A DNA stretch of 11,901 nt from an uncultured Acidobacteriota bacterium (lineage in GTDB: Bacteria; Acidobacteriota; Thermoanaerobaculia; Gp7-AA8): assembly GCA_963741955.1 (NCBI GenBank), contig CAVUKB010000014.1, forward strand, positions 1-11,901. Reading direction: 5' to 3'. A program made the translations under genes and the position numbers. This document shows, piece by piece, positions 1,144 through 11,901 of this stretch. Below the pieces are notes generated by a model. That model did not search any database, had not been told where the DNA came from, and saw only the letters and a program-made list of their open reading frames with translations. Each line of letters begins with the position of its first letter. Positions within the stretch are counted from its first letter, which is position 1.

Positions 1144-2376
1144 TTAGACGCTGGCATCGGTGGACCTCGGGGTGGTGGCGTCCTCCCCCTCGAGGGGGAG
1201 GATCGAGGAGGGGGTGCGACGGTTCAGAGAGCGTGCTCGCGTCGAGCTTTTTCCGTTGAGGTGGTGAACGCGGGCGAGCTTTCGTTCGATGATGTCGGAT
1301 AGTTCGAAGGGGTTGAGCGTCGCACGGAGCGCAGCGAGACGGGCGAGCTCGGGAGAACGCGGATTGTCGGCGAGGAGGCGATCGAGGGGCGTGCGGGGCG
1401 CATCGTAGACGCGCCGTGTACGAGAGCCGATTCGTTCCTTCCGGATGAGCTTCACCGAGGGCTGAAACAGGTTCATCATCAGCCGCCACTCCTTCGCATA
1501 GAGATCGTTCAACGCGTCCACGGCCGCACGGGTATCGATCCGCTCCCAGCCTACGAGCCGTCGGACGTGGGTCCAGTTCTTCTGCTCGATGTGCGCGTTG
1601 TCGTCTTTCTTGTACGGCCGTCCCCGGGTGAACTGAACCTTGTTGCGGAGGCAGTACCGATAGAGATGACCGTTGATGAACTCACTGCCGTTGTCAGAGT
1701 CGATTCCGAGAAGACGGAAGGGCAGTGCAACCCGGATCCATTCGATCGCCGCGACGATACCGGTCTGGGCTTTACTCAGAACCGCCCGGGTCTCGGTCCA
1801 TGTCGAGTGGATGTCGGTGAAGTTCAGTGAGTGGGCGAACTCGCCATCGGCACACGGCCCGGAGTGCGACACCAGATCGATCTCACACCAGCCGGGATCC
1901 TGGACATCCCACCGATCGGTGCGGATCGGGATGTGATGCTTGAGAAGCGTGCCGGGCTTGGTTCGACCGTAGAGCTTCCGCCGATCCGCCGTCCGCCGCT
2001 CTCGCAGGTAGCGGTCGATCGATCGTGGGCTGATCTCGAGCACGGCCTGCTCGACCTCTGAGGATAGATTCTTCACGTACGGCAGCCACAACCGGAGCAT
2101 CGATTTGAGCCTCACCGACCATGGATAATCGGCCGCTTCCCAGATGCCCTCGAGCACGTCGATCACCGCGGCCGAATACTTCTTCTTCCGTCCAGGTCGT
2201 CCCCGCCTCCGGCCGTTCTTCTCAGGCGGGTTGCGGAGCAATGAGATCGCATACTTGCGGTTCAGCCCCGCTGCCATGCAGAACGCGTCGAGGATCATCG
2301 CTTTCTCCTTCCGCCCTGCCTTCCGGTATCGTTCCGAGAGTCGCCGTGCCTGTTCGTGTCGATCTTTCGCCTTCAT
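1144..2376 (-). CDS. DDE-type transposase/integrase (rve core), 410 aa
   Basis: ATG at 2376 after a GGGGAGGG RBS. N-terminal RYRKAGRKEKAMILDAFC..AGLNRKYAISLL HTH region, then EIDLVSH (D), DSDNGSEFIN (D), TRGRPYKKDDNAHIEQKN (E), and YDAPRTPLDRL. The upstream extension to 2643 in the ORF track crosses the element end and is not credible. Confidence 0.9.
   Translation of the reverse strand: MKAKDRHEQARRLSERYRKAGRKEKAMILDAFCMAAGLNRKYAISLLRNPPEKNGRRRGRPGRKKKYSAAVIDVLEGIWEAADYPWSVRLKSMLRLWLPYVKNLSSEVEQAVLEISPRSIDRYLRERRTADRRKLYGRTKPGTLLKHHIPIRTDRWDVQDPGWCEIDLVSHSGPCADGEFAHSLNFTDIHSTWTETRAVLSKAQTGIVAAIEWIRVALPFRLLGIDSDNGSEFINGHLYRYCLRNKVQFTRGRPYKKDDNAHIEQKNWTHVRRLVGWERIDTRAAVDALNDLYAKEWRLMMNLFQPSVKLIRKERIGSRTRRVYDAPRTPLDRLLADNPRSPELARLAALRATLNPFELSDIIERKLARVHHLNGKSSTRARSLNRRTPSSILPLEGEDATTPRSTDASV
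1181..1215. repeat. REP-like palindromic element inside the 3' end of the transposase gene
   Basis: Perfect 22-bp palindrome TCCTCCCCCTCGAGGGGGAGGA at 1181-1202, followed by the G-rich tail TCGAGGAGGGGGT. Confidence 0.6.
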
Positions 2377-2402
2377 CGCACCCTCCCCCGCAGAGGATGC
2401 CC

Positions 2403-2464
2403 CGGTCAGATTCTTTTTGGCGCGACGATTCTCCCTTCGGTCAGATTTAGTTTGGCGCGATACG
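2403..2464 (-). repeat. Right terminal region of the IS, with two tandem copies of the end motif
   Basis: Reverse complement reads CGTATCGCGCCAAACTAAATCTGACCGAAGGGAGAATCGTCGCGCCAAAAAGAATCTGACCG and aligns with 1060-1120. Confidence 0.8.
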
Positions 2465-2492
2465 AGGCGCTCGCCTTTCCCGCCGCCGTCCG

Positions 2493-2498
2493 TATAAT
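2493..2498 (+). promoter_or_regulatory. Candidate sigma70 -10 element for the dehydrogenase/lipoate operon
   Basis: Perfect TATAAT in very GC-rich intergenic DNA, ~240 bp upstream of E1-alpha; the -35 match (CTCGCC/TCGCCT) is weak. Confidence 0.5.
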
Positions 2499-2738
2499 GT
2501 CGCGTCGAGCTCGTCCCGGAGGCGTTCGGGGCGGGCTGGATAGTTCGCAACCTCCGGTCCCGGGCGAGTCGAATGGATCGGAGCAGCGACGTCCCGGTCG
2601 TCTGACCGACGATCGTGCCGGTGATCCACCGGCGAGCACGCATCGTGAATCGTCAGCAGGAAGGCTCCCGGGCACCAACCGGATTCAGGTGGAGAGATCG
2701 GGAGGCGAACGCCCGTCCGGGCCGCCGGAGGAACCACA

Positions 2739-3782
2739 TTGACCGAACAGGCAGCGAACGCAGCAGAGATCGGCCTCCCGCGGGAGGCACTCCTCGAAAT
2801 GGATTACTACATGAGGATGACGCGCTCGCTCGAAGAGCGGATCGTCATCCTTTTCAGGCAATCGAAGGTGATCGGCGGCATCTACCGCTCACTCGGACAG
2901 GAAGGTGAAGCGGTCGCGGCGGCATACGCGCTCGATTTCGCCCGCGGCGACGTCGTCTCTCCTCTGATCCGGAACATGGGAGCGATGCTCGTGGCGGGCG
3001 CGAAACCGCTGGAGATCCTCCGTCAGTACATGGCGAAGGGAAACGCGCCTTCCCGCGGCCGCGATCTCAATATCCACTTCACCGATCTGGACCGCGGCTT
3101 CGTCGGCCCGATCTCGATGCTCGGCGACATGGTCTCGGTGATCTCCGGCGTGGTGCTCGCCCGTCGGATGCAGAAGCGCGACAGCGTGGGCATGGTGTTC
3201 ATCGGAGACGGCGCCTCTTCGACCGGAGCGTTCGCCGAAGGGATGAACTTCGCCGCGGTGAAGAAACTCCCTCTGGTCGTGGTGATCGAAGACAACGGAT
3301 ACGCCTACTCGACACCGACCTCACGACAGACCGCCGCGCGAACCCTCGCGGACAAGGCCATGGCGTACGGCTGTTTCGGCGAGACGGTGGATGGCAACGA
3401 CCCAATCGCCGTCCACCGCGCCGCCCGTGCCGCGGTGGATCGCGCCCGGCGTGGTGAAGGTGTGACCCTCCTCGAAGTGAAGACCTTCCGCATGCGCGGT
3501 CACGCGGAGCACGACAATCAGGCCTACGTCCCGAAAGAGCTGATCGAGGAATGGAAGAAGAAGGATCCGATCGACCGCTTCGAGCGCTTCCTCCTCGATT
3601 CCGGAACGGCGTCCGAGGACGATCTCGAGCAGATCCGCGTGAGAATCCGTGCGGAGCTCGATCACGCGGTGCAGGAAGCGGAGGCGTCGCCGATGCCCCT
3701 TCCGGAGGAAGCGCAGTACGGCGTGTGGCACGGCGATGGTTTCTGGGAGAACCCGCCTCTCTGCGAGGGAGGTGAGCGATGA
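2739..3782 (+). CDS. pdhA: 2-oxoacid (pyruvate/branched-chain) dehydrogenase E1 alpha subunit, ThDP-dependent
   Basis: TTG start with a GGAGG RBS; GQEG motif, ThDP-binding GDGA...GMNFAAV..LP...EDNGYA, VDGND, and FRMRGHAEHD. Substrate specificity (pdhA vs bkdA1) cannot be determined by eye. Confidence 0.9.
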   Translation: MTEQAANAAEIGLPREALLEMDYYMRMTRSLEERIVILFRQSKVIGGIYRSLGQEGEAVAAAYALDFARGDVVSPLIRNMGAMLVAGAKPLEILRQYMAKGNAPSRGRDLNIHFTDLDRGFVGPISMLGDMVSVISGVVLARRMQKRDSVGMVFIGDGASSTGAFAEGMNFAAVKKLPLVVVIEDNGYAYSTPTSRQTAARTLADKAMAYGCFGETVDGNDPIAVHRAARAAVDRARRGEGVTLLEVKTFRMRGHAEHDNQAYVPKELIEEWKKKDPIDRFERFLLDSGTASEDDLEQIRVRIRAELDHAVQEAEASPMPLPEEAQYGVWHGDGFWENPPLCEGGER

Positions 3783-4777
3783 CCGCCGAAGCTCCGAAAG
3801 CGGGTGGCGAGACTTCTTACGTCGAAGCGATCCGTCAGGCGATGTGGGAAGAGATGGAACGCGACGAGCGCGTCTTCCTCATCGGCGAGGACGTCGGAAT
3901 CTACGGAGGCGCCTTCAAGACCAGCGCCGGACTTCTCGACCGCTTCGGCGAGGAGAGAGTGATCGACACGCCGATCTCGGAGACCGCGATCGTCGGCGCG
4001 GCCGCAGGAGCCGCGATGGCCGGGATGCGGCCCATCGCCGAGATGCAGTTCATCGACTTCATCTCCGTCGCATTCGACCAGCTGACCAACTTCGCCTCGA
4101 AGCTGCGATACCGCAACGGCTACGGCTGTCCTCTCGTCGTGCGCGGCCCTTCGGGTGGCGGCGTCCACGGCGGACCGTTCCACTCCGGCAATCCGGAAGC
4201 TTTCTTCTTCAACACCCCGGGGCTGAAGATCGTCGCGCCGGGAACGGCGCGTGACGCCAAGGGACTGCTGAAAGCGGCGATCCGCGACGAGGATCCCGTG
4301 ATCTACCTCGAGCACAAATTCCTCTACCGCCGGATCAAAGAAGAGCTCCCGGCGGACGACTTCGTCGTGCCGATCGGAAAGGCCAACGTTCGTCGTGAAG
4401 GAAAGGACCTCACCATTCTCACCTGGGGAGCGATGAACTACGTGGCGGACGAGGCGGCGGACGAGCTCGCGAAAGATGGGGTTTCCGTGGAGATCGTCGA
4501 TCTCCGGTCGATCCGTCCGTTCGACGAGGAGACGATCCTCGCGTCGGTGGCGAAGACCAACCGCGCGATCATTCTCCACGAAGCGCCGCTCACGGGCGGA
4601 GCAGGGGGCGAGTTCGCAGCACGGATCGCGGAGAAGGCATTCGAATACCTCGACGCACCGATCCGCCGCGTCGCGTCGAACGACACGCCTCCTCCCTATT
4701 CACCGCCGCTCGAGGAGTTCTTCCTCCCGAACAGGGAGAAGCTCCTTGCGGTTGCGAAGGAGCTGTTGCGCTACTGA
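3779..4777 (+). CDS. pdhB: 2-oxoacid dehydrogenase E1 beta subunit
   Basis: ATGA overlap with E1-alpha; GEDVG..GG.FK, RVIDTPISE, RPIAEMQFIDF, GGPFHS, PGLKIVAP, DPVIYLEHK, VDLRSI.PFD, LDAPIRRV. Confidence 0.93.
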   Translation: MTAEAPKAGGETSYVEAIRQAMWEEMERDERVFLIGEDVGIYGGAFKTSAGLLDRFGEERVIDTPISETAIVGAAAGAAMAGMRPIAEMQFIDFISVAFDQLTNFASKLRYRNGYGCPLVVRGPSGGGVHGGPFHSGNPEAFFFNTPGLKIVAPGTARDAKGLLKAAIRDEDPVIYLEHKFLYRRIKEELPADDFVVPIGKANVRREGKDLTILTWGAMNYVADEAADELAKDGVSVEIVDLRSIRPFDEETILASVAKTNRAIILHEAPLTGGAGGEFAARIAEKAFEYLDAPIRRVASNDTPPPYSPPLEEFFLPNREKLLAVAKELLRY

Positions 4778-4797
4778 TGGGAACGCCGTGTGCAAAG

Positions 4798-4826
4798 TTG
4801 ACACGCGACCCCGGAAGCGGAAGGAT
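4798..4826 (+). promoter_or_regulatory. Possible internal promoter upstream of E2
   Basis: Perfect TTGACA at 4798-4803 in the 120-bp gap between E1-beta and E2; the -10 at 17-bp spacing (AAGGAT) is poor. Confidence 0.25.
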
Positions 4827-4897
4827 TGAATCTCGCGCTCGCGTGAAGGGCGTCTGCGCGTGAAGAGAAATCGAGCGAACGAAGGACGAAGCGAGAC

Positions 4898-6268
4898 ATG
4901 GCTACCGATGTCGTAATGCCACAGATGGGCGAGTCGATCGCCGAGGGAACGATCTCCCGCTGGATCAAGAAGCCGGGAGAGAAGGTGGAACGGGACGAAC
5001 CGATTCTCGAGATCTCGACCGACAAGGTCGACGCGGAGATTCCGGCGCCGGTCTCGGGGACGCTCACCGAGGTCCTGGCGAACGAAGGGGACACCGTCCC
5101 GGTCAACAGCGTGATCGCGAGAATCGCGGCGGAAGGAGAAGCCGCACCGCCCCCGCAGGCCGCACCGGCACCGAAGCCGGAGGCGACGCACCCCTCTGAA
5201 CCCGCCGAGCAGCCCCAGGCTGCGGCGCCGCAGCCGAAGCCGTCCGCTCCGGAACCGGCAGCTGCACCACAGCCGGCGCCGCAGGCCTCGCCGGCGCCGC
5301 AGGCCGAGGAGAACGTCACGTCCCTCGAGGAACGGCGCCGCACCAGGTCCTCTCCGCTGGTCCGGAAGATCGCACGCGAGAACGACATCGACATCTCGCA
5401 GATCGAAGGGAGCGGCGTCTCGGGAAGAGTGACGAAAGACGACATCCTCGAGTACATGGAGCGGCCGCGAGCAGCAGCGTCCGTACAGCCGGCTCCGCAA
5501 CCGCGACCCTCCTCTCCTCCCGCCGCGCCGCAGCGAGAGCCGGGGCAGCCATCCGCGTCTCCCGGGGGCGAGAACATCCGGATCGAGCCGATGTCCGTCA
5601 TGCGCAAGAAGATCGCCGATCACATGGTCTTCTCCAAACGGACCTCCGCACACGTCAGTACCGTGTTCGAGGTCGACTTCACCGCGATCGACCGACTGCG
5701 CAAACAGCACAAGGCTTCCTATGCGGAGCGAGGCGTCAGCCTGACCTACATGGCGTTCATCATCCAGGCGGTGATCACGGCATTGCGCGAGTTCCCCATC
5801 ATCAACTCGTCGATCGACGGCGACAACATCATCTATAAAGACGATCTGAACATCGGCATCGCCGTCGCGCTCGATTGGGGACTGATCGTTCCCGTCCTCA
5901 AGCGCGCCGACGAGAAGAACATCCTCGGGATCGCGCGCTCGATCAGCGAGCTCGCCGAACGCGCCCGCACCAAGAAGCTCAATCCGGAGGACGTACAGGG
6001 CGGGACATTCACGATTACCAATCCCGGCGTCTACGGCGGTCTCTTCGGACTTCCGATCATCAACCAGCCGCAGGTCGCGATTCTCGGAGTCGGAGGAGTG
6101 AAGAAGCGTCCGGTGGTGGTGGAGACGGAGGCCGGCGACGCGATCGTGGTCCGCTCCATGTGCTATCTCTCGCTCACCTTCGATCATCGAATCATCGACG
6201 GCGCGGTGGCGGACCAGTTCATGGCCAGAGTGCGGTCCATCATCGAGGCGGGGCAGTACAGTCTGTAA
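4898..6268 (+). CDS. Dihydrolipoamide acyltransferase (E2) with one lipoyl domain
   Basis: Lipoyl domain MPQMGESIAEGTI..W...EISTDKVDAE (lipoyl-Lys), Pro/Ala/Gln linker, E3-binding domain SSPLVRKIARE...GSGVSGRVTKDD, and catalytic GGTFTITNPG and DHRIIDG. Confidence 0.95.
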   Translation: MATDVVMPQMGESIAEGTISRWIKKPGEKVERDEPILEISTDKVDAEIPAPVSGTLTEVLANEGDTVPVNSVIARIAAEGEAAPPPQAAPAPKPEATHPSEPAEQPQAAAPQPKPSAPEPAAAPQPAPQASPAPQAEENVTSLEERRRTRSSPLVRKIARENDIDISQIEGSGVSGRVTKDDILEYMERPRAAASVQPAPQPRPSSPPAAPQREPGQPSASPGGENIRIEPMSVMRKKIADHMVFSKRTSAHVSTVFEVDFTAIDRLRKQHKASYAERGVSLTYMAFIIQAVITALREFPIINSSIDGDNIIYKDDLNIGIAVALDWGLIVPVLKRADEKNILGIARSISELAERARTKKLNPEDVQGGTFTITNPGVYGGLFGLPIINQPQVAILGVGGVKKRPVVVETEAGDAIVVRSMCYLSLTFDHRIIDGAVADQFMARVRSIIEAGQYSL

Positions 6269-6328
6269 CGGCCCCACTCGCGCGGAGACGGTACGACACT
6301 GAGCTCCATCCTTGTAATCATCTTCCTG

Positions 6329-6976
6329 GTGGTCCTCGCGATCGTCGTCCCGGCGCTCGCGTGGATGAGCCGCCGCGCTCTCGAGAGCGGAGCTCGGATC
6401 CCACGACTCCCACTCTACGCGGAGGTGGTCGTCCTCCAGCTTCTCCTCTTCGGGCTCGCGATGCTGGTGGCATGGAGCGGACGATTCTCGATCTTCAGCC
6501 GCCGGCTTCCGACTCTCGATGGGTGGGCCGCCGGCGCGATCCTCCTCCTGATTGCCACCGTTGCGATGTTGCTGAACCTCCGGTTCGGAACCGCCGATCA
6601 CGACGATCCTCTCTACCGCATCGCTCCCGAATCGATGATCGAGAAGCTCGCATGGATCGGAGTCTCGTGCGTCGCCGGAGTCAGCGAGGAGGTGATTTAC
6701 CGCGGAGCCGCGTACGTGGTGATCCAGCGCCTGGTCCACGGGATCTGGCCTCCCATCCTGATCGCATCCGTCCTCTTCGGGATGGCGCATCTGACTCAGG
6801 GCATCCGCCGCAGCGCACTGGTCGCCCTCTTCGGATTCGGCTTCCACCTCGTCGTCCTCTACTCCGGAAGCCTCTACCCCGCTTTCGTCGTTCATGCTTT
6901 GTATGACATCCTCGCAGGGCTGGCGCTCGCCCGCGACCGCCGCCGGAGGAACTGGACCGAACATGCGACTCTGTGA
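6329..6976 (+). CDS. CPBP (Abi/CAAX protease-like) intramembrane glutamic endopeptidase; true start may be further upstream (CTG at 6299)
   Basis: Multiple hydrophobic helices with EEVIYRG (EExxxR), FGMAH (FxxxH) and HALYD (HxxxB) motifs. Confidence 0.85.
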   Translation: MVLAIVVPALAWMSRRALESGARIPRLPLYAEVVVLQLLLFGLAMLVAWSGRFSIFSRRLPTLDGWAAGAILLLIATVAMLLNLRFGTADHDDPLYRIAPESMIEKLAWIGVSCVAGVSEEVIYRGAAYVVIQRLVHGIWPPILIASVLFGMAHLTQGIRRSALVALFGFGFHLVVLYSGSLYPAFVVHALYDILAGLALARDRRRRNWTEHATL

Positions 6977-8054
6977 GCTGCGCAATCTCGATCTCGTCAC
7001 GTATGAGAACGGCATGCAGATGCAGCAGGAGCTGGTCACGCTCCGTCAGGAAGAGCGCATCCCCGACCAGCTCCTCCTTCTCCAGCATCCCCCGGTCATC
7101 ACCCTGGGACGCAGCGGACACGAAGAGAACCTCCTCGCGTCTCCAGCCGCACTCGCTGCGGAAGGGGTGCGCTTCTACGAAACGACCCGCGGAGGCGACA
7201 TCACGTATCACGGGCCGGGACAGCTCGTCGGCTATCCGCTGATCTCGCTCGGCGAGGGACGCCGCGATGTCCGCCGCTACGTGACGAACCTCGAGGAAGT
7301 GATCATCCGCACCGTCGCCGCTTTCGGCATCGAAGCCGGTCGTTGGGAAGGCCACCGGGGCGTCTGGGTGGGGCGTGAGAAGATCGCCGCGATCGGAGTC
7401 CGCGTCGCGAAATGGGTCACTTCCCACGGCTTCGCGCTCAACGTCGATCCGAACCTCCACCACTTCGACCTGATCACTCCCTGCGGGATCCCGGATGCGG
7501 GAGTCACATCGATTGCCAGGCTTACCGGACGGTCGATCACGGTCGAGGAAGTCCGTGAGGCGCTCGTCCCGCACTTCGCGGATGTCTTCGAGCGGGAGAT
7601 CCGCCCCAACCCCCCCGATCTCGCCCTGGTGAAGGTCGTCGTGCACGACGGCAATCGCATTCTTCTCCTCCACCGGCGTCCCGATTCGGGAGATTTCTGG
7701 CAGCCGATCACCGGACGGATCGAAGCGGGAGAAGTCGCCGAAGCCGCGGCCCGCCGGGAGATCGTGGAGGAGACGGGAATGGGTGGAGAGCCGGAAAGCC
7801 TCGATCTCCGGCAGTCGTTCCTGATCGAGGCGAAGTACCTGAAGGACGCCTCGGATCTCCCGATCTTCGCGGACGAGATCGCGTTCGCCGCATGGATCGA
7901 TGCGTCGCGAGCGCTTCGTCTCGACGCTTCAGAGCACGACCGCTACGGCTGGTTCTCCACCGAAGAGGCGCTCGCGAAGATCCGCTGGAGCGACGATCGG
8001 GAAGCGATCGAGCGGCTCGTCGTTCGAGCGCTCTCGGCTTCGGCCGTGGGATGA
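6963..8054 (+). CDS. lipB: Lipoyl(octanoyl) transferase LipB fused to a C-terminal Nudix hydrolase domain
   Basis: ATG at 6963 overlaps the CPBP gene end. LipB motifs QHPPVITLG, RGGDITYHGPGQLVGYP, KIAAIG, HGFALNV, PCG. From ~7629 a Nudix domain with a full box GRIEAGEVAEAAARREIVEETGM (7713-7781). Confidence 0.93.
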   Translation: MRLCELRNLDLVTYENGMQMQQELVTLRQEERIPDQLLLLQHPPVITLGRSGHEENLLASPAALAAEGVRFYETTRGGDITYHGPGQLVGYPLISLGEGRRDVRRYVTNLEEVIIRTVAAFGIEAGRWEGHRGVWVGREKIAAIGVRVAKWVTSHGFALNVDPNLHHFDLITPCGIPDAGVTSIARLTGRSITVEEVREALVPHFADVFEREIRPNPPDLALVKVVVHDGNRILLLHRRPDSGDFWQPITGRIEAGEVAEAAARREIVEETGMGGEPESLDLRQSFLIEAKYLKDASDLPIFADEIAFAAWIDASRALRLDASEHDRYGWFSTEEALAKIRWSDDREAIERLVVRALSASAVG

Positions 8055-8099
8055 TGCGGCGACCGCGGGCGGTTGTGACCCGATGAGAGATCGAAAGGA

Positions 8100-9002
8100 A
8101 TGATCAACAAACGCGCAGGAGAACGGCCCGAGTGGCTGAAGATTCGCGTTCCCGGCGACCTCGATCGTCTGCCGGTGACGAGACTGATCAACGACCTCGC
8201 CCTCAACACCGTCTGCCAGGAAGCCCGCTGTCCGAACATTTTCGAATGCTGGGCCGCAGGGACCGCGACGTTCATGATCCTCGGCGAAGTCTGCACCCGC
8301 CGCTGCACGTTCTGCGCGGTGGCGAAGGGCGCACCACTCCCCGCCGACCCCGGCGAGCCGCGCCGGGTCGCGGAAGCGGTCGCGAAGATGAACGTGCGGC
8401 ATGCGGTGATCACCACGGTGAACCGTGATGATCTTCCCGATGGAGGAGCCGAGCACTTCGCGAAGACGATCGAGGAGGTTCAGGAGGGAAGCGAGGCAAC
8501 GGTCGAAGCTCTGATCTCGGATCTGGAAGGCGATCGTGACGCGCTTCGCACCATCCTGGCCGCTCGGCCGAAAGTGCTCGCGCACAACATCGAGACGATT
8601 CCGCGGCTCTACGCGCAGGTTCGGCCGACGGCGAAGTACCAACGCTCCCTCGACATCCTCCGCTGGGCTTCCGAAGAGCGGCACGAAGGTATGCTCACCA
8701 AGTGCAGCATCATGCTCGGGCTGGGAGAGACTCCTGAAGAAGTCCTCGAGGTGGCCGCGGATCTCCGGGATGCCGGGGTGGACATCTTCACCATGGGCCA
8801 GTATCTCGCGCCGACCGAACGGAACCACCCGGTGCGGCGGTACTACTCGCCCGAGGAGTTCCGGGATCTCGGCCAGGCGGCGAAACGACTCGGATTTCAG
8901 CACGTCGAGTCCGGACCTCTGGTCCGGAGTTCCTATATGGCGCATCGTGCCGTAGAATCTTCGGCCGGCCCCGCCGATGCGGAGAGCGGTACCCTCGGAT
9001 GA
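8100..9002 (+). CDS. lipA: Lipoyl synthase (radical SAM)
   Basis: RPEWLK, auxiliary-cluster CQEARCPNIFEC, radical-SAM CTRRCTFC, HNIET, IMLGLGET, GQYL.P, SGPLVRSSY.A. Confidence 0.97.
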   Translation: MINKRAGERPEWLKIRVPGDLDRLPVTRLINDLALNTVCQEARCPNIFECWAAGTATFMILGEVCTRRCTFCAVAKGAPLPADPGEPRRVAEAVAKMNVRHAVITTVNRDDLPDGGAEHFAKTIEEVQEGSEATVEALISDLEGDRDALRTILAARPKVLAHNIETIPRLYAQVRPTAKYQRSLDILRWASEERHEGMLTKCSIMLGLGETPEEVLEVAADLRDAGVDIFTMGQYLAPTERNHPVRRYYSPEEFRDLGQAAKRLGFQHVESGPLVRSSYMAHRAVESSAGPADAESGTLG

Positions 9003-9006
9003 CACG

Positions 9007-9285
9007 ATGCCTCGAGTGACGTTCGAAGATCAGGATCAGACTGCCGACTTCGAATCCGAACGAACACTTCTGAGCTGCGCCATCGACATGGGGATCCGGA
9101 TCAGCCACGTCTGCGGTGGAGACGGCGCCTGCGGCACGTGCCGCATCGCCGTGGTCGACGGATGGGACCAGCTCTCCCCTCCGACGCCCGATGAGACGTA
9201 CAAGGAGCTCGAGCCACCGTACCGGCTGAGCTGCCAGGCGAAGCTGAAAGGCGACGTCGTGGTGAAAGTCGCAAAAATCGAGTGA
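9007..9285 (+). CDS. [2Fe-2S] ferredoxin, adrenodoxin/ISC-Fdx type (92 aa)
   Basis: ATG 4 bp after the lipA stop; HVCGGDGACGTC (Cx5Cx2C) ... RLSCQ; N-terminal MPRVTF. Confidence 0.9.
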   Translation: MPRVTFEDQDQTADFESERTLLSCAIDMGIRISHVCGGDGACGTCRIAVVDGWDQLSPPTPDETYKELEPPYRLSCQAKLKGDVVVKVAKIE

Positions 9286-9294
9286 GAGGAAGTC

Positions 9295-9798
9295 ATGACG
9301 GAAACCGTATCGACGATGACCGAGACCGAACAGAGGCTGGGACTCGTTTTCCAATACACGGTCGAAGCCTACAAGGTGTTCGAGAAACTTGCTGAAGTGC
9401 TGCCGAATCCGATCACCGCGGGGATGTTCGAGAACTTCGCCGAGGATGAGCGCGGGCTTCGCGATCTGCTGGAGATCAAGTATTCGGCAGGACACGCGCG
9501 ACTGAAGATCACCCTCGGCGCGGATCTCCGCTACCTCGACATGGTGGAGGGCGATCTCTCCTATCGCGAGATGACCGAGATGATGATCGCCCGCGAGCGG
9601 GCCATGGAAAAGAAGCTGAACGAATGGGTGGCGAACGGCTCGGAGTCCGATCGTAACCTCTTCCACTATCTGGCCGCGACCAAGCGCGCGCATCTCGTAT
9701 TTCTCGACCGCGAGCTGACGCTGATCCAGTTCTACCCCCAGTGGTTCCGCCGCGAAGACGCCGAGTCGCTCATCGTGCACGGAACTTCCGAAGAATGA
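9295..9798 (+). CDS. Ferritin-like/rubrerythrin-family four-helix-bundle protein with degenerate diiron ligands
   Basis: GAGAGGA RBS. Two repeats of a helix pair: EAYKVFEKLAE / MFENFAEDERGLRDLL and ARERAM / LFHYLAATKRAHLVFL. Confidence 0.65.
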   Translation: MTETVSTMTETEQRLGLVFQYTVEAYKVFEKLAEVLPNPITAGMFENFAEDERGLRDLLEIKYSAGHARLKITLGADLRYLDMVEGDLSYREMTEMMIARERAMEKKLNEWVANGSESDRNLFHYLAATKRAHLVFLDRELTLIQFYPQWFRREDAESLIVHGTSEE

Positions 9799-10088
9799 GC
9801 CCCAACATCTCCATCACTCCGGAGGCCTCCGCCCGATTGCAGAGCGATCTGCAGGGGGGAGTCCTCCGGATCTCCTTCACCACCGGATGTGGAGGGAGCG
9901 GATACCGGATTGCGTCTTCCTCCGCTCCTCTGGATGAGGATGTGGTGGTGGAGGTGGGAGAGGTCGTGGTCGCCCTCGACCAGATGGCCGCGCGTAACCT
10001 GGATGGTGCGGAGATCGTGTACGACGAGGAAGAGTCGGGCTATTCGATTCTGCATCCGAACGCGGTCAGCGCGGTCTGGTGCGGGTGA
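9795..10088 (+). CDS. HesB/IscA (A-type Fe-S carrier)-like protein, atypical (97 aa)
   Basis: ATGA overlap with the previous gene; ISITPEA, LRISF..GCGGSGY, DEDVVVE...VVVALD....LDGAEIVY.....GYSILHPNA...CG. Confidence 0.8.
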   Translation: MSPNISITPEASARLQSDLQGGVLRISFTTGCGGSGYRIASSSAPLDEDVVVEVGEVVVALDQMAARNLDGAEIVYDEEESGYSILHPNAVSAVWCG

Positions 10089-10089
10089 G

Positions 10090-10114
10090 CCGGCGGGAGA
10101 GGAGCTCCGGCCGG
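10090..10114. terminator. GC-rich hairpin between convergent genes (possible terminator or stabiliser)
   Basis: CCGGC-G-GGAG / CTCC-G-GCCGG stem fills the 26-bp gap between the two stop codons; no U-tract on either strand. Confidence 0.3.
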
Positions 10115-10609
10115 TCAGACGAATCGCGGCTCCGATGTCCCCAGAATCCCTCCGCGATTGAGAAGCACCAGCTCGAGCTCGCGGATCTGTGAGCCGTTGC
10201 CCGACCGGAGAATCATCCTGCAATCGGTCAGAGGGAAAAAGGGGTCGCGCTGGAGGAGGTAATCCGAGACTCTGACTCCGGTTCCCACCCAGAGCGTGCC
10301 ACTGATCACTCCCCCGTTGAACGCGCACGAAACATCCTTCTCGCTCGCGTTCGCTACGACTTTCGCGCTCGGCTCCGGGACGTCGGGAATGATCAGGATC
10401 ACCGTCCGCCGTTGAAGAGCGAAGAAAGGAACGCGCTTATCGAGCCCCGGAAGGGCCACGTCTTTCAATTTGAAAAAATCGTGCTGGTGATTCACGTAGT
10501 CGGTGAGGCTTCGCCGCGCCGGCACCATGAACCAGCCGCGAACCCATCCTGCGGTGGTCAGAAGCTGTGCCCCGAGGTCACGCTGAGTCGGAGGCGTGTA
10601 CTGACTCAT
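10115..10609 (-). CDS. Hypothetical protein with two internally repeated beta-rich domains (164 aa)
   Basis: ATG at 10609 with a GGAG RBS. Repeat 1: GWVRGWFMVPARRSLTDYVNHQHDFFKLKDV...FFALQRRTVI. Repeat 2: GVISGTLWVGTGVRVSDYLLQRDPFFPLTDC...LVLLNRGGIL. Confidence 0.75.
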   Translation of the reverse strand: MSQYTPPTQRDLGAQLLTTAGWVRGWFMVPARRSLTDYVNHQHDFFKLKDVALPGLDKRVPFFALQRRTVILIIPDVPEPSAKVVANASEKDVSCAFNGGVISGTLWVGTGVRVSDYLLQRDPFFPLTDCRMILRSGNGSQIRELELVLLNRGGILGTSEPRFV

Positions 10610-10701
10610 GCTCCACTCCGTGATCGGAATCGCCGGCACCGGACGAGATGATTCGTGATGCGGCGACGGCGAGGCCGGATCTTCGATATCGGTACCGTGG
10701 C

Positions 10702-10707
10702 ATTCTA
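10702..10707 (-). promoter_or_regulatory. Candidate -10 element (TAGAAT) for the 10115-10609 gene
   Basis: TAGAAT on the minus strand in a locally AT-richer patch ~90 bp upstream of the start; no convincing -35. Confidence 0.3.
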
Positions 10708-10774
10708 CAGGTTATGCAGATACGAAACCGAACGCAGATTCCGGGACAGCCGCGCACGCCGACGGGAGCGCGGC

Positions 10775-10850
10775 CGTGCGGATCAGAGGATCCGCGCTCC
10801 CCAACGCCGGGGAATGCGCCGAGGGGAGCGCGGATCCTCTGATCCGCACG
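10775..10850. repeat. Perfect 28-bp inverted repeat (REP doublet) with a 20-bp spacer
   Basis: CGTGCGGATCAGAGGATCCGCGCTCCCC (10775-10802) is the exact reverse complement of GGGGAGCGCGGATCCTCTGATCCGCACG (10823-10850). Confidence 0.95.
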
Positions 10851-11901
10851 CCACACTCGCGTTCAGATCGGATCGAGACCATTCCTCCGGCAGAAGCGGA
10901 GCGGTTCGATCGAGACGATAGCGCCACCGACGCTTCGCGCCCACCCACAACTTCCCTCTTCATCGCGTACAACAAGATTCGCGCGGCGGATCGGAGGATC
11001 CGCACCCCATAGAACCCGCGCAGCGAAACGCGCCGAGGAGCACCCGCCGTGGGGAGCGAGCGCCGAGGGGACACCCGCCAAGGGGAGTACGCACCGTGGG
11101 GAGTACGCACCGAGGGGAGCGCGGATCCTCTGATCCGCACGCCACACTCGCGTTCAGATCGGATCGAGACCATCCCTGCGGCAGAAGCGGAGCGGTTCGA
11201 TCGAGACGATAGCGCCACCGACGCTTCGCGCCCAGCCACAACTTCCCTCTTCATCGCGTACAACACGATTCGCGCGGCGGATCGGAGGATCCGCACGCCA
11301 TAGAACGCGCGCAGCGAAACGCGCCGAGGAGCACCCGCGCCGAGGAGAGCGCGGACGGGAGTACCTGCCGTGGGGAGCGCGGATCCTCTGATCCGCACGC
11401 GATAATCGCGTTCAGATCGGATCGAGACCATCCCTGCGGCAGAAGCGGAGCGGTTCGGTCGAGACACCGGAAACCACCGACGCTTCGCGCCCAGCCACAA
11501 CCTTCCTCTTCATCGCACGAACACGATTCGCGCGGCGGATCGGAGGATCCGCACCCCATAGAACCCGCGCAGCGGCACGCGCCGAGGAGCACCCGCCGCG
11601 GGGAGCGAGCGCCGTGGGGAGTACGCGCCGTGGGGAGTACGCACCGTGGGGAGCGCGGATCCTCTGATCCGCACGCGATAATCGCGTTCAGATCGGATCG
11701 AGACCATCCCTCCGGCAGAAGCGGAGCGGTTCGATCGAGACGATAGCGCCACCGACGCTTCGCGCCCACCCACAACTTCCCTCTTCATCGCGTACAACAC
11801 GATTCGCGCGGCGGATCGGAGGATCCGCACCCCATAGAACGCGCGCAGCGAAACGCGCCGAGGAGCACCCGCGCCGAGGAGAGCGCGGACGGGAGTACCT
11901 G
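10823..11901. repeat. Tandem array of REP-like/BIME-like composite units (at least 4, truncated by the window end)
   Basis: The identical 28-mer starts at 10823, 11114, 11372 and 11648 (periods 291, 258, 276; unit 4 tracks unit 2 in length). The inverted variant GCGGATCGGAGGATCCGCAC starts at 10986, 11277, 11535 and 11811. About 225 bp per unit is conserved and the remainder is variable. Confidence 0.95.

Follow-up and report, generated by a model that had tools for sequence, protein, structure and literature searches.

A conserved ferredoxin, ferritin-fold and HesB-like gene set behind lipA as a candidate support cassette for lipoyl synthase in uncultured Acidobacteriota

Several described systems supply lipoyl synthase with iron-sulfur clusters or electrons. 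Passages of a 2026 review of the enzyme report that NfuA restores the auxiliary cluster of the bacterial synthase LipA and that the ferredoxin FDX1 is needed for the human enzyme LIAS (PMC13692748), a background on which the first-pass annotation of the DNA studied here had already drawn. The same passages name flavodoxin as the Escherichia coli reductant of LipA and describe in vitro reset of LipA by NfuA and IscU in E. coli and by NFU1 in humans; since loss of nfuA causes no lipoylation defect in E. coli, other reset routes must exist (PMC13692748). NfuA is targeted to its client apo-proteins by its A-type domain, according to a section of PMC8593673 that cites work on LipA. FDX2 supplies electrons for [4Fe-4S] assembly together with ISCA1, ISCA2 and IBA57 (sections of PMC9313013), and lipoyl synthase is listed there among the clients dependent on ISCA1/ISCA2/IBA57/FDX2 (PMC9313013; likewise in part of PMC8393393). 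Here we analyze a stretch of DNA (hereafter the window) that is the entire 11.9-kb contig C14 of the 5.4-Mb, 99.1% complete metagenome-assembled genome (MAG) G000 of an uncultured member of the Acidobacteriota. In it, a lipA gene is followed by genes for a [2Fe-2S] ferredoxin (Fdx), a ferritin-fold protein that we call FerL and a HesB/IscA-fold protein (HesB-like). This arrangement recurs in all the related loci that we analyzed, and it is an even call, in our judgment, that the three small proteins constitute a set for the maturation and regeneration of LipA.

The locus has elements in common with each of the known systems. As in the E. coli NfuA-LipA pair, an A-type-fold module is tied to lipoyl synthase, the rebuilding of the sacrificed [4Fe-4S] cluster being what we propose here; however, no Nfu domain was found in G000, and the HesB-like protein is encoded in the lipA operon, whereas nfuA of E. 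coli is not known to be. In the nif clusters, hesB/iscA-nif and fdxH/fdxN provide a three-Cys A-type carrier and a [2Fe-2S] ferredoxin linked to their client. A client-linked carrier and ferredoxin are thus shared with the cassette, but the nif client is nitrogenase and no ferritin-fold partner is known there. The apicoplast reportedly also employs a [2Fe-2S] ferredoxin as LipA reductant. In the human FDX1-LIAS system, as outlined in the review passages, lipoyl synthase is likewise coupled to a small [2Fe-2S] ferredoxin, the tie in our locus being one of genetic linkage only (PMC13692748). The ISCA1/ISCA2/IBA57 plus FDX2 set likewise combines A-type carrier, third helper and [2Fe-2S] ferredoxin, but the cassette has one A-type-fold protein, a two-Cys putative carrier, and its third protein is of ferritin fold, with no similarity to IBA57/YgfZ found in FerL. 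Client-linked Fe-S support genes are a known principle, which this locus extends rather than newly founds. Our literature search, with subscription journals outside its coverage, found no description of a lipA-ferredoxin-ferritin-like-HesB cassette or of lipoyl synthase in Thermoanaerobaculia, and the review passages on ferredoxin, operon, NfuA, IscA and flavodoxin contain no bacterial cassette (PMC13692748).

The three small genes follow lipA at very short distances: 4 bp separate lipA from the ferredoxin gene (9003-9006) and 9 bp the latter from ferL (9286-9294), whereas the ferL stop and the hesB start overlap by 4 bp in an ATGA (9795-9798). The gene placement and gaps of 4, 9 and -4 bp given by the first-pass annotation were therefore confirmed from the sequence. 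Its statement that the operon contains no isc/suf core genes also held, as none was found among the 13 open reading frames (ORFs) scanned in the window and the SUF genes lie on another contig. A scan of 185,579 species genomes yielded 112 loci encoding a FerL relative, 80 of which were kept for analysis (the tallies of FerL among close relatives, of A-type-fold matches, of lipA copies and of Nfu include the unpublished genomes G022, G030, G086 or G183, on which no conclusion depends alone; one alignment row, L011, comes from G022, and locus L042 from G030). The order LipB(Nudix) > LipA > Fdx > FerL > HesB was found in 80/80 species-level loci. LipA, Fdx, FerL and HesB were all present in 76 of them, the other four being cut by a contig end or by a repeat or insert beside a contig end, and among close relatives every locus with enough sequence showed the five genes in this order. 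The synteny survey that the first-pass annotation had suggested thus found the three genes linked to lipA throughout, between flanks that vary. An E2 gene lies upstream of LipB in 34 of the 57 loci that could be evaluated, and the remaining 23 have other genes there; a further 12 loci had too little sequence for a call. The CPBP protease gene is a variable insert between E2 and LipB, present in 11/80. Downstream, a cluster of homologous ORFs is common to 37 of the 62 loci with >1.5 kb of sequence; the only member scanned by Pfam (in L071, minus strand) is hemB/ALAD. The DUF6812 gene that follows the cassette in the window occurs in none of the 80 related loci and is peculiar to the G000 version of the locus.

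All FerL loci belong to uncultured MAGs of Thermoanaerobaculia or unclassified Acidobacteriota. FerL was found in 23 of 24 further genera of the family, in both genomes searched from a second family within the order, and in 0/14 genomes of the other families searched (one more family of the order plus nine from the rest of the class). An apparent lack of the cassette in one genome of the same family (G011) was rejected as uncertain, this assembly being split into 690 contigs with a ferredoxin fragment at a contig end. With start codons chosen by script, 4-bp overlaps were found between FerL and HesB in 60/78 loci and between Nudix and LipA in 44/72, and the LipA-Fdx gap had a median of 8.5 bp, the Fdx-FerL gap one of 12 bp. 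Such tight or overlapping junctions fit a single transcript, and the FerL and HesB genes appear to be translationally coupled. A crude scan of positions 2400-10800 returned 0 promoter-like sites and 3 terminator-like sites (5.0 expected), none of the latter between lipA and the end of hesB. A search of sequencing runs with window positions 6900-10200 matched no RNA run, its sole match being a DNA run of a soil metagenome, perhaps the one from which the assembly was made. Relative to the window sequences, median identity was 75% for LipA, 73% for Fdx, 59% for HesB and 57% for FerL, and the metal-ligand candidates of Fdx, FerL and HesB were invariant among orthologues. The core genes appear to be under purifying selection and, as judged from these comparisons, the five genes behave as one evolutionary unit. 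In one locus (L075:1-760), a ~120-aa ORF lies directly upstream of FerL, at the place expected for the ferredoxin, where the contig starts; it is flanked by short repeats reading PETGNRK in one frame and resembles a small insertion.

The conserved five-gene core opens with a gene for a LipB octanoyltransferase fused to a Nudix domain, the LipB assignment exceeding the cut-offs of NF010925 (210.1 bits vs 155) and TIGR00214 (169 bits vs 83.55). Apart from its strain-variant copies on C5, C14 and C15, it is the sole LplA/LipB-family match in G000, and the locus is therefore the lipoylation locus of the organism. The stretch would then be the distal part of its only lipoylation locus, organized as the five-gene unit lipB-nudix/lipA/fdx/ferL/hesB, in which every core gene besides the three small ones is lipoylation-specific. 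The Nudix part was detected in 73/80 related loci. The Nudix box of this C-terminal domain is intact; among NCBIfam models the domain comes closest to dihydroneopterin-triphosphate diphosphatase, with 69 bits vs a cut-off of 103. We found no description of a LipB-Nudix fusion in the literature, subscription journals being outside our coverage. The genes for E1 alpha, E1 beta and E2 of a 2-oxoacid dehydrogenase lie upstream of the cassette, outside the conserved core, and this neighbouring E2 is likely the lipoylation substrate.

Lipoyl synthases have an N-terminal CX4CX5C motif for the auxiliary cluster, a CX3CX2C motif for the radical S-adenosylmethionine (SAM) cluster and a C-terminal RSSY motif. 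All of them are present in the cassette LipA (CQEARCPNIFEC, CTRRCTFC and VRSSYMA), and their residues are invariant among 21 cassette LipAs. A further lipA stands alone in G000 (G000:C1:296710-297558; locus L032:7699-8613, minus strand); it is 47% identical to the cassette LipA, has all the motifs and adjoins a Ser/Thr kinase-tetratricopeptide repeat (TPR) gene; two lipA copies occur in most genomes of the order. In a phylogenetic tree of 23 LipA sequences (16 of 77 cassette copies, taking every fifth, plus 7 others), the stand-alone and the operon-type copies fell into two separate clades (100/99 support). The latter clade includes the LipA of another family (G034, G038), encoded in an operon of the type E1a-E1b-E2-LipB-x-LipA without the three small genes. 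This position implies that the three genes joined an older lipoylation operon within the order. In G038 and G034, which belong to one genus, a convergent gene for an 88-aa Fer4_13 single-cluster ferredoxin lies within ~40 bp past LipA (L145:6002-6268 and L146:5969-6235, both minus strand); this could be an independent ferredoxin-lipA association.

The AlphaFold2 (AF2) model of FerL is a ferritin-like four-helix bundle (predicted local distance difference test, pLDDT, 88.3; predicted template modelling score, pTM, 0.83). VIA-align related it to the Dps-like protein PA4880 (8w1d; Z 16.3, root-mean-square deviation 2.4 over 134 residues) and to bacterioferritins (Z 15-16), whereas the best Foldseek match, MJ0754, had an E value of only 1.9e-3. 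With hhalign, the match to normal rubrerythrin-domain proteins had a probability of 99.2%. The label of ferritin-like protein proposed at first is thus supported by the fold (AF2, VIA-align, hhalign), but PF02915 scores below its threshold and only four of the six di-iron ligands remain. Among 24 orthologues, PF02915 matched 5 at E<=0.01, and 11 had a weak DUF2383 match. A FerL profile built from the 24 orthologues retrieved just 63 representatives at E<=0.001 from 1.84 billion proteins: one full-length close representative, fragments, and then ~162-aa rubrerythrin-domain proteins (E 1e-11 to 1e-4). No FerL was found outside this cassette, the strong matches among the 1.84 billion representatives being the one full-length protein and the fragments. 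ESM Atlas clusters containing FerL are annotated as 'hypothetical protein'. Apparent fused forms (P0022, P0024, P0005, P0019, P0029) were discarded as frameshifted or chimeric gene calls.

FerL retains E24, E52, E101 and H133, four of the six di-iron ligands. Two are lost: position 55, where helix B should carry a His, is variable, and the Glu of helix D is replaced by K130 (Lys or Arg in all 24 orthologues). In 17 normal relatives, by contrast, the six ligand positions (E, ExxH, E, ExxH) are invariant. Having lost two of these ligands, FerL cannot hold a canonical di-iron centre, and we rejected it as a working ferritin or rubrerythrin for this reason. FerL is homologous to the rubrerythrin/erythrin-type PF02915 proteins, with the same fold, length and W-containing C-terminal tail as the ~162-aa relatives, but it departs from them by the missing ligands, the sub-threshold Pfam score and its genomic setting. 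It is, by this comparison, a degenerate offshoot of the rubrerythrin family.

The HesB-like protein passes the PF01521 threshold, in agreement with its first-pass description as HesB/IscA-like, but it misses the TIGR00049 cut-off (38.3 bits vs 58.8) and has only two of the three carrier cysteines. Its profile matches the IscA structures 1s98 and 1r94 (E 4e-9 to 8e-9). In comparison with E. coli IscA, C32 corresponds to Cys35 and C96 to Cys101, Cys99, which opens the C-G-C motif, is replaced by V94, and the chain ends one residue past C96. All 25 orthologues compared share C32, C96, H87, D62 and W95, and H87 occupies the Asn position of the NPN motif. For A-type carriers, three cysteine ligands are predicted in the relevant part of PMC8593673 (C37, C101 and C103 in T. 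elongatus IscA), so that the HesB-like protein is a two-Cys, perhaps Cys2-His, variant of this carrier type. In public databases the cassette carrier is annotated as 'iron-sulfur cluster biosynthesis family protein' or IscA (proteins of 51-172 aa). A complex prediction for LipA with the HesB-like protein, based on two alignments, scored 0.01 against a mark of 0.32, which is neither support for nor evidence against binding. A wider two-Cys HesB-like subfamily exists in other families (37-43% identical to the window's protein), not linked to lipA, with a GCGG motif, a conserved His in HP(D) and a C-terminal Cys as last residue. In two of its loci (L042 and L044), the neighbour of the HesB-like gene is a ThiD-like (hydroxymethylpyrimidine phosphate, HMP-P, kinase) ORF, recognized by eye.

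The ferredoxin has the cysteine pattern CX5CX2CX30C, the 30-residue spacing to the fourth Cys being read from the sequence, and C36, C42, C45 and C76 are invariant across 23 orthologues. Its family scores reach no specific cut-off: NqrF 49 bits, AcsV 43.6 bits and fdx_isc (TIGR02007) 41 bits vs 132.1. Since NqrF and AcsV outscore fdx_isc, which is itself below cut-off, the initial designation as adrenodoxin-type was too specific, although the CX5CX2C...C pattern and the Fer2 domain are there. Against the PDB, the best profile match was the N-terminal domain of RACo (3zyy), followed by E. coli Fdx, terpredoxin and NqrF. With respect to E. coli Fdx, part of a segment is absent from the cassette ferredoxin (an alignment gap).

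The rest of the iron-sulfur machinery of G000 is encoded elsewhere, with SufB, SufD and SufU on contig C6, away from the three small genes. Our searches of G000 detected no flavodoxin domain and no canonical A-type carrier, the only A-type-like match being the cassette HesB-like protein. Nfu was found in 0/28 genomes of the order, G000 included, versus 7/13 in other families of the class. When the phylum was sampled broadly, the cassette copy was the sole A-type-fold match in all 7 genomes of the order; a second tier of matches (62-73 bits), likewise of the two-Cys pattern, appeared in five genomes of other families. Ordinary PF01521-type carriers, ending in CGCGHSF, occur in L046-L048. No A-type-like match was found in any of five genomes of the class searched; as one of these, G028, was also without Nfu, such carriers are not indispensable there.

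Starting from the gene content, linkage, residue conservation, fold and missing other carriers observed above, we infer the following contacts and chemical steps from gene context and homology. LipA would destroy its auxiliary [4Fe-4S] cluster when sulfurating the octanoyl-E2 made by LipB. The HesB-like protein, probably a dimer holding a cluster via C32, C96 and perhaps H87, would dock on LipA and re-insert the cluster, which is the job of NfuA in E. coli. The ferredoxin may give single electrons, either to the radical-SAM cluster of LipA or for the fusion of [2Fe-2S] into [4Fe-4S] on the HesB-like protein. FerL, with neither ferroxidase nor peroxidase activity predicted, would most likely be the partner of the HesB-like protein, acting as a Glu3-His site that holds or donates iron or as an adaptor.

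A number of observations weigh against this proposal. The stand-alone lipA of G000 has no ferredoxin, FerL or HesB neighbours, and the E1-E2-LipB-LipA operon of the sister family, without the three genes, indicates that operon-type LipA can work in their absence. The 80 loci form one clade, so that their count overstates independence. In other families, the proteins closest to the HesB-like one, with 37-43% identity and the same two-Cys pattern, are not encoded next to lipA, and the nearest ferredoxin relative outside the order (in G033) follows an aminotransferase gene; the association therefore looks young and confined to one order. The nearest normal relatives of FerL sit among rubrerythrin and hemerythrin(-PAS) genes rather than beside lipA. 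The absence of one of the three carrier cysteines, as listed in part of PMC8593673, makes cluster binding by the HesB-like protein uncertain. Finally, the idea that FerL handles released iron is weakened by the loss of two of its six di-iron ligands. The original view of the cassette, in which the three proteins supply electrons, handle released iron and rebuild the cluster, is thus partly supported: the lipA linkage and a genome without Nfu, canonical A-type carrier or flavodoxin favour it, but its iron-handling component has lost ground.

As the sole A-type-fold carrier of the order, the HesB-like protein may or may not be dedicated to LipA and could serve many clients. The ferredoxin, FerL and HesB-like protein might then be the general late-acting set of this lineage for [4Fe-4S] formation and delivery, a counterpart of ISCA/IBA57/FDX2 or of ErpA placed behind lipA by history or co-regulation, with LipA as no more than one of its numerous clients. 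The HesB-like protein is the sole A-type-fold match in G000 and six other sampled genomes of the order, and the lack of Nfu in the 28 genomes of the order, while 7 of 13 elsewhere in the class have Nfu and others PF01521-type carriers, looks like carrier replacement. This sole-carrier status and the distribution complementary to Nfu and ordinary carriers fit a general set as well as they fit a LipA-directed one, and ferredoxin plus A-type carrier is a known recipe for reductive [4Fe-4S] assembly in sections of PMC9313013. However, the lipA linkage is kept in 80/80 loci while both flanks change, the remaining core genes are all lipoylation-specific, the SUF genes are located away from the three small genes, and genomes of the class can do without an A-type-like match (5/5 searched). 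We thus regard a general set as rather unlikely, though deserving serious consideration.

The same three proteins could also form a self-contained machine repairing LipA on site, in which FerL captures the iron that LipA leaves and passes it to the Cys2-His carrier, the ferredoxin driving re-formation of the [4Fe-4S] cluster on or next to LipA. This would mean that the LipA remnant is recycled instead of a fresh SUF cluster being delivered, and that a suicide enzyme has an NfuA-independent way to become catalytic. We consider it improbable.

A guard against oxidative stress is more doubtful still. Here FerL would be a rubrerythrin-like scavenger of peroxide or oxygen, reduced by the ferredoxin and protecting the LipA clusters in aerobic soil, with the HesB-like protein repairing damage. 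Homology to rubrerythrin-domain proteins (hhalign, 99.2%) and the gene neighbourhoods of FerL's closest normal relatives, in which rubrerythrins and a hemerythrin-PAS protein are encoded, agree with such a role; nevertheless, these relatives keep six ligands and FerL four, the helix-B His being variable and the helix-D Glu changed to Lys/Arg in 24/24 orthologues, and a canonical di-iron peroxidase site therefore cannot form, which makes this role very improbable. Hardly credible is the absence of any functional tie, with the three genes as passengers kept beside lipA by shared descent in one young clade: all loci do lie within one order of one class, and outside it the relatives of each of the three genes are unlinked to lipA, but FerL has diverged to 46-64% identity with the gene order unchanged and the neighbours on both sides exchanged, the 4-bp overlaps are conserved, and FerL was not found outside the cassette among 1.84 billion representatives.

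Table 1. Genes of the window, followed by members of the two-Cys HesB-like subfamily in other loci
Feature	Coordinates	Strand	Family evidence and remarks
2-oxoacid dehydrogenase E1 alpha	2739..3782	+	PF00676 237 bits; best NCBIfam is pyruvate dehydrogenase (PDH) E1 alpha, below cut-off
2-oxoacid dehydrogenase E1 beta	3779..4777	+	PF02779, PF02780; NF006667 356.5 bits vs cut-off 321
E2 acyltransferase, one lipoyl domain	4898..6268	+	PF00364, PF02817, PF00198
CPBP/Rce1-like membrane protease	6329..6976	+	PF02517 58 bits
LipB octanoyltransferase-Nudix fusion	about 6963..8054	+	PF21948 176.9 bits and PF00293 56.6 bits
Lipoyl synthase LipA, operon-type paralogue	8100..9002	+	TIGR00510 338.5 bits vs 310.25
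[2Fe-2S] ferredoxin, 92 aa	9007..9285	+	Fer2 PF00111 47.6 bits vs 21
FerL, 167-aa ferritin-fold four-helix-bundle protein	9295..9798	+	Rubrerythrin PF02915 19.4 bits vs 22.8 (below threshold)
HesB/IscA-fold protein, 97 aa	9795..10088	+	PF01521 30.0 bits vs 26.3
DUF6812 protein, 174 aa, convergent	10115..10639	minus	Two DUF6812 stretches, PF20660 50.3 bits; closes the cluster
Two-Cys HesB-like member	L042:1375-1791	+	
Two-Cys HesB-like member	L044:1498-1809	minus	
Two-Cys HesB-like member	L045:1480-1794	+	
Two-Cys HesB-like member	L043:1483-2001	minus	

A chromosomal region on contig C5 of the same assembly, at ~881.5-889.8 kb (compared stretch G000:C5:880670-891851), is 97.6% identical to the window contig, which represents a strain variant of it. 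Contig C15 holds a third copy of the locus, 95% identical, with frameshifts in lipA, fdx and hesB, and the small contigs of the G000 assembly appear to be alternative haplotypes. An insertion sequence (IS) element at 1057-2465 lies upstream of the E1-alpha gene in the window, the C5 copy being without this insertion. The product of the ORF associated with it (1144-2643, minus strand) is a transposase of the rve (DDE) type that matches PF00665 weakly, and copies of the element with 97-100% identity are found on C1, C5, C7 and C12. No E3 (dihydrolipoamide dehydrogenase) gene lies beside the E1-alpha, E1-beta and E2 genes within the window. The best equivalog of E2 is of the actinobacterial SucB type (431 bits vs a cut-off of 423), whereas the E1 subunits look PDH-like. 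A tandem array occupies 10819-11899 (units of ~258-291 bp, 3-4 copies, 84-86% match), with related arrays on C4, C5, C7 and C15, and the ORFs running across it look like repeat artefacts. An Rfam scan of the window, tandem array included, gave no match.

Two unusual parts of this locus are leads for Fe-S biochemistry: a possible Cys2-His variant of the A-type carrier fold and a family of ferritin fold, its metal site half lost, that is known from the cassette only. The locus bears on how the self-consuming lipoyl synthase is reset and on the physiological reductant of LipA, a question unsettled in most bacteria. It offers a small and defined candidate set, composed of a ferredoxin, a carrier and a partner, in a lineage in which no Nfu, canonical A-type carrier or flavodoxin was found.

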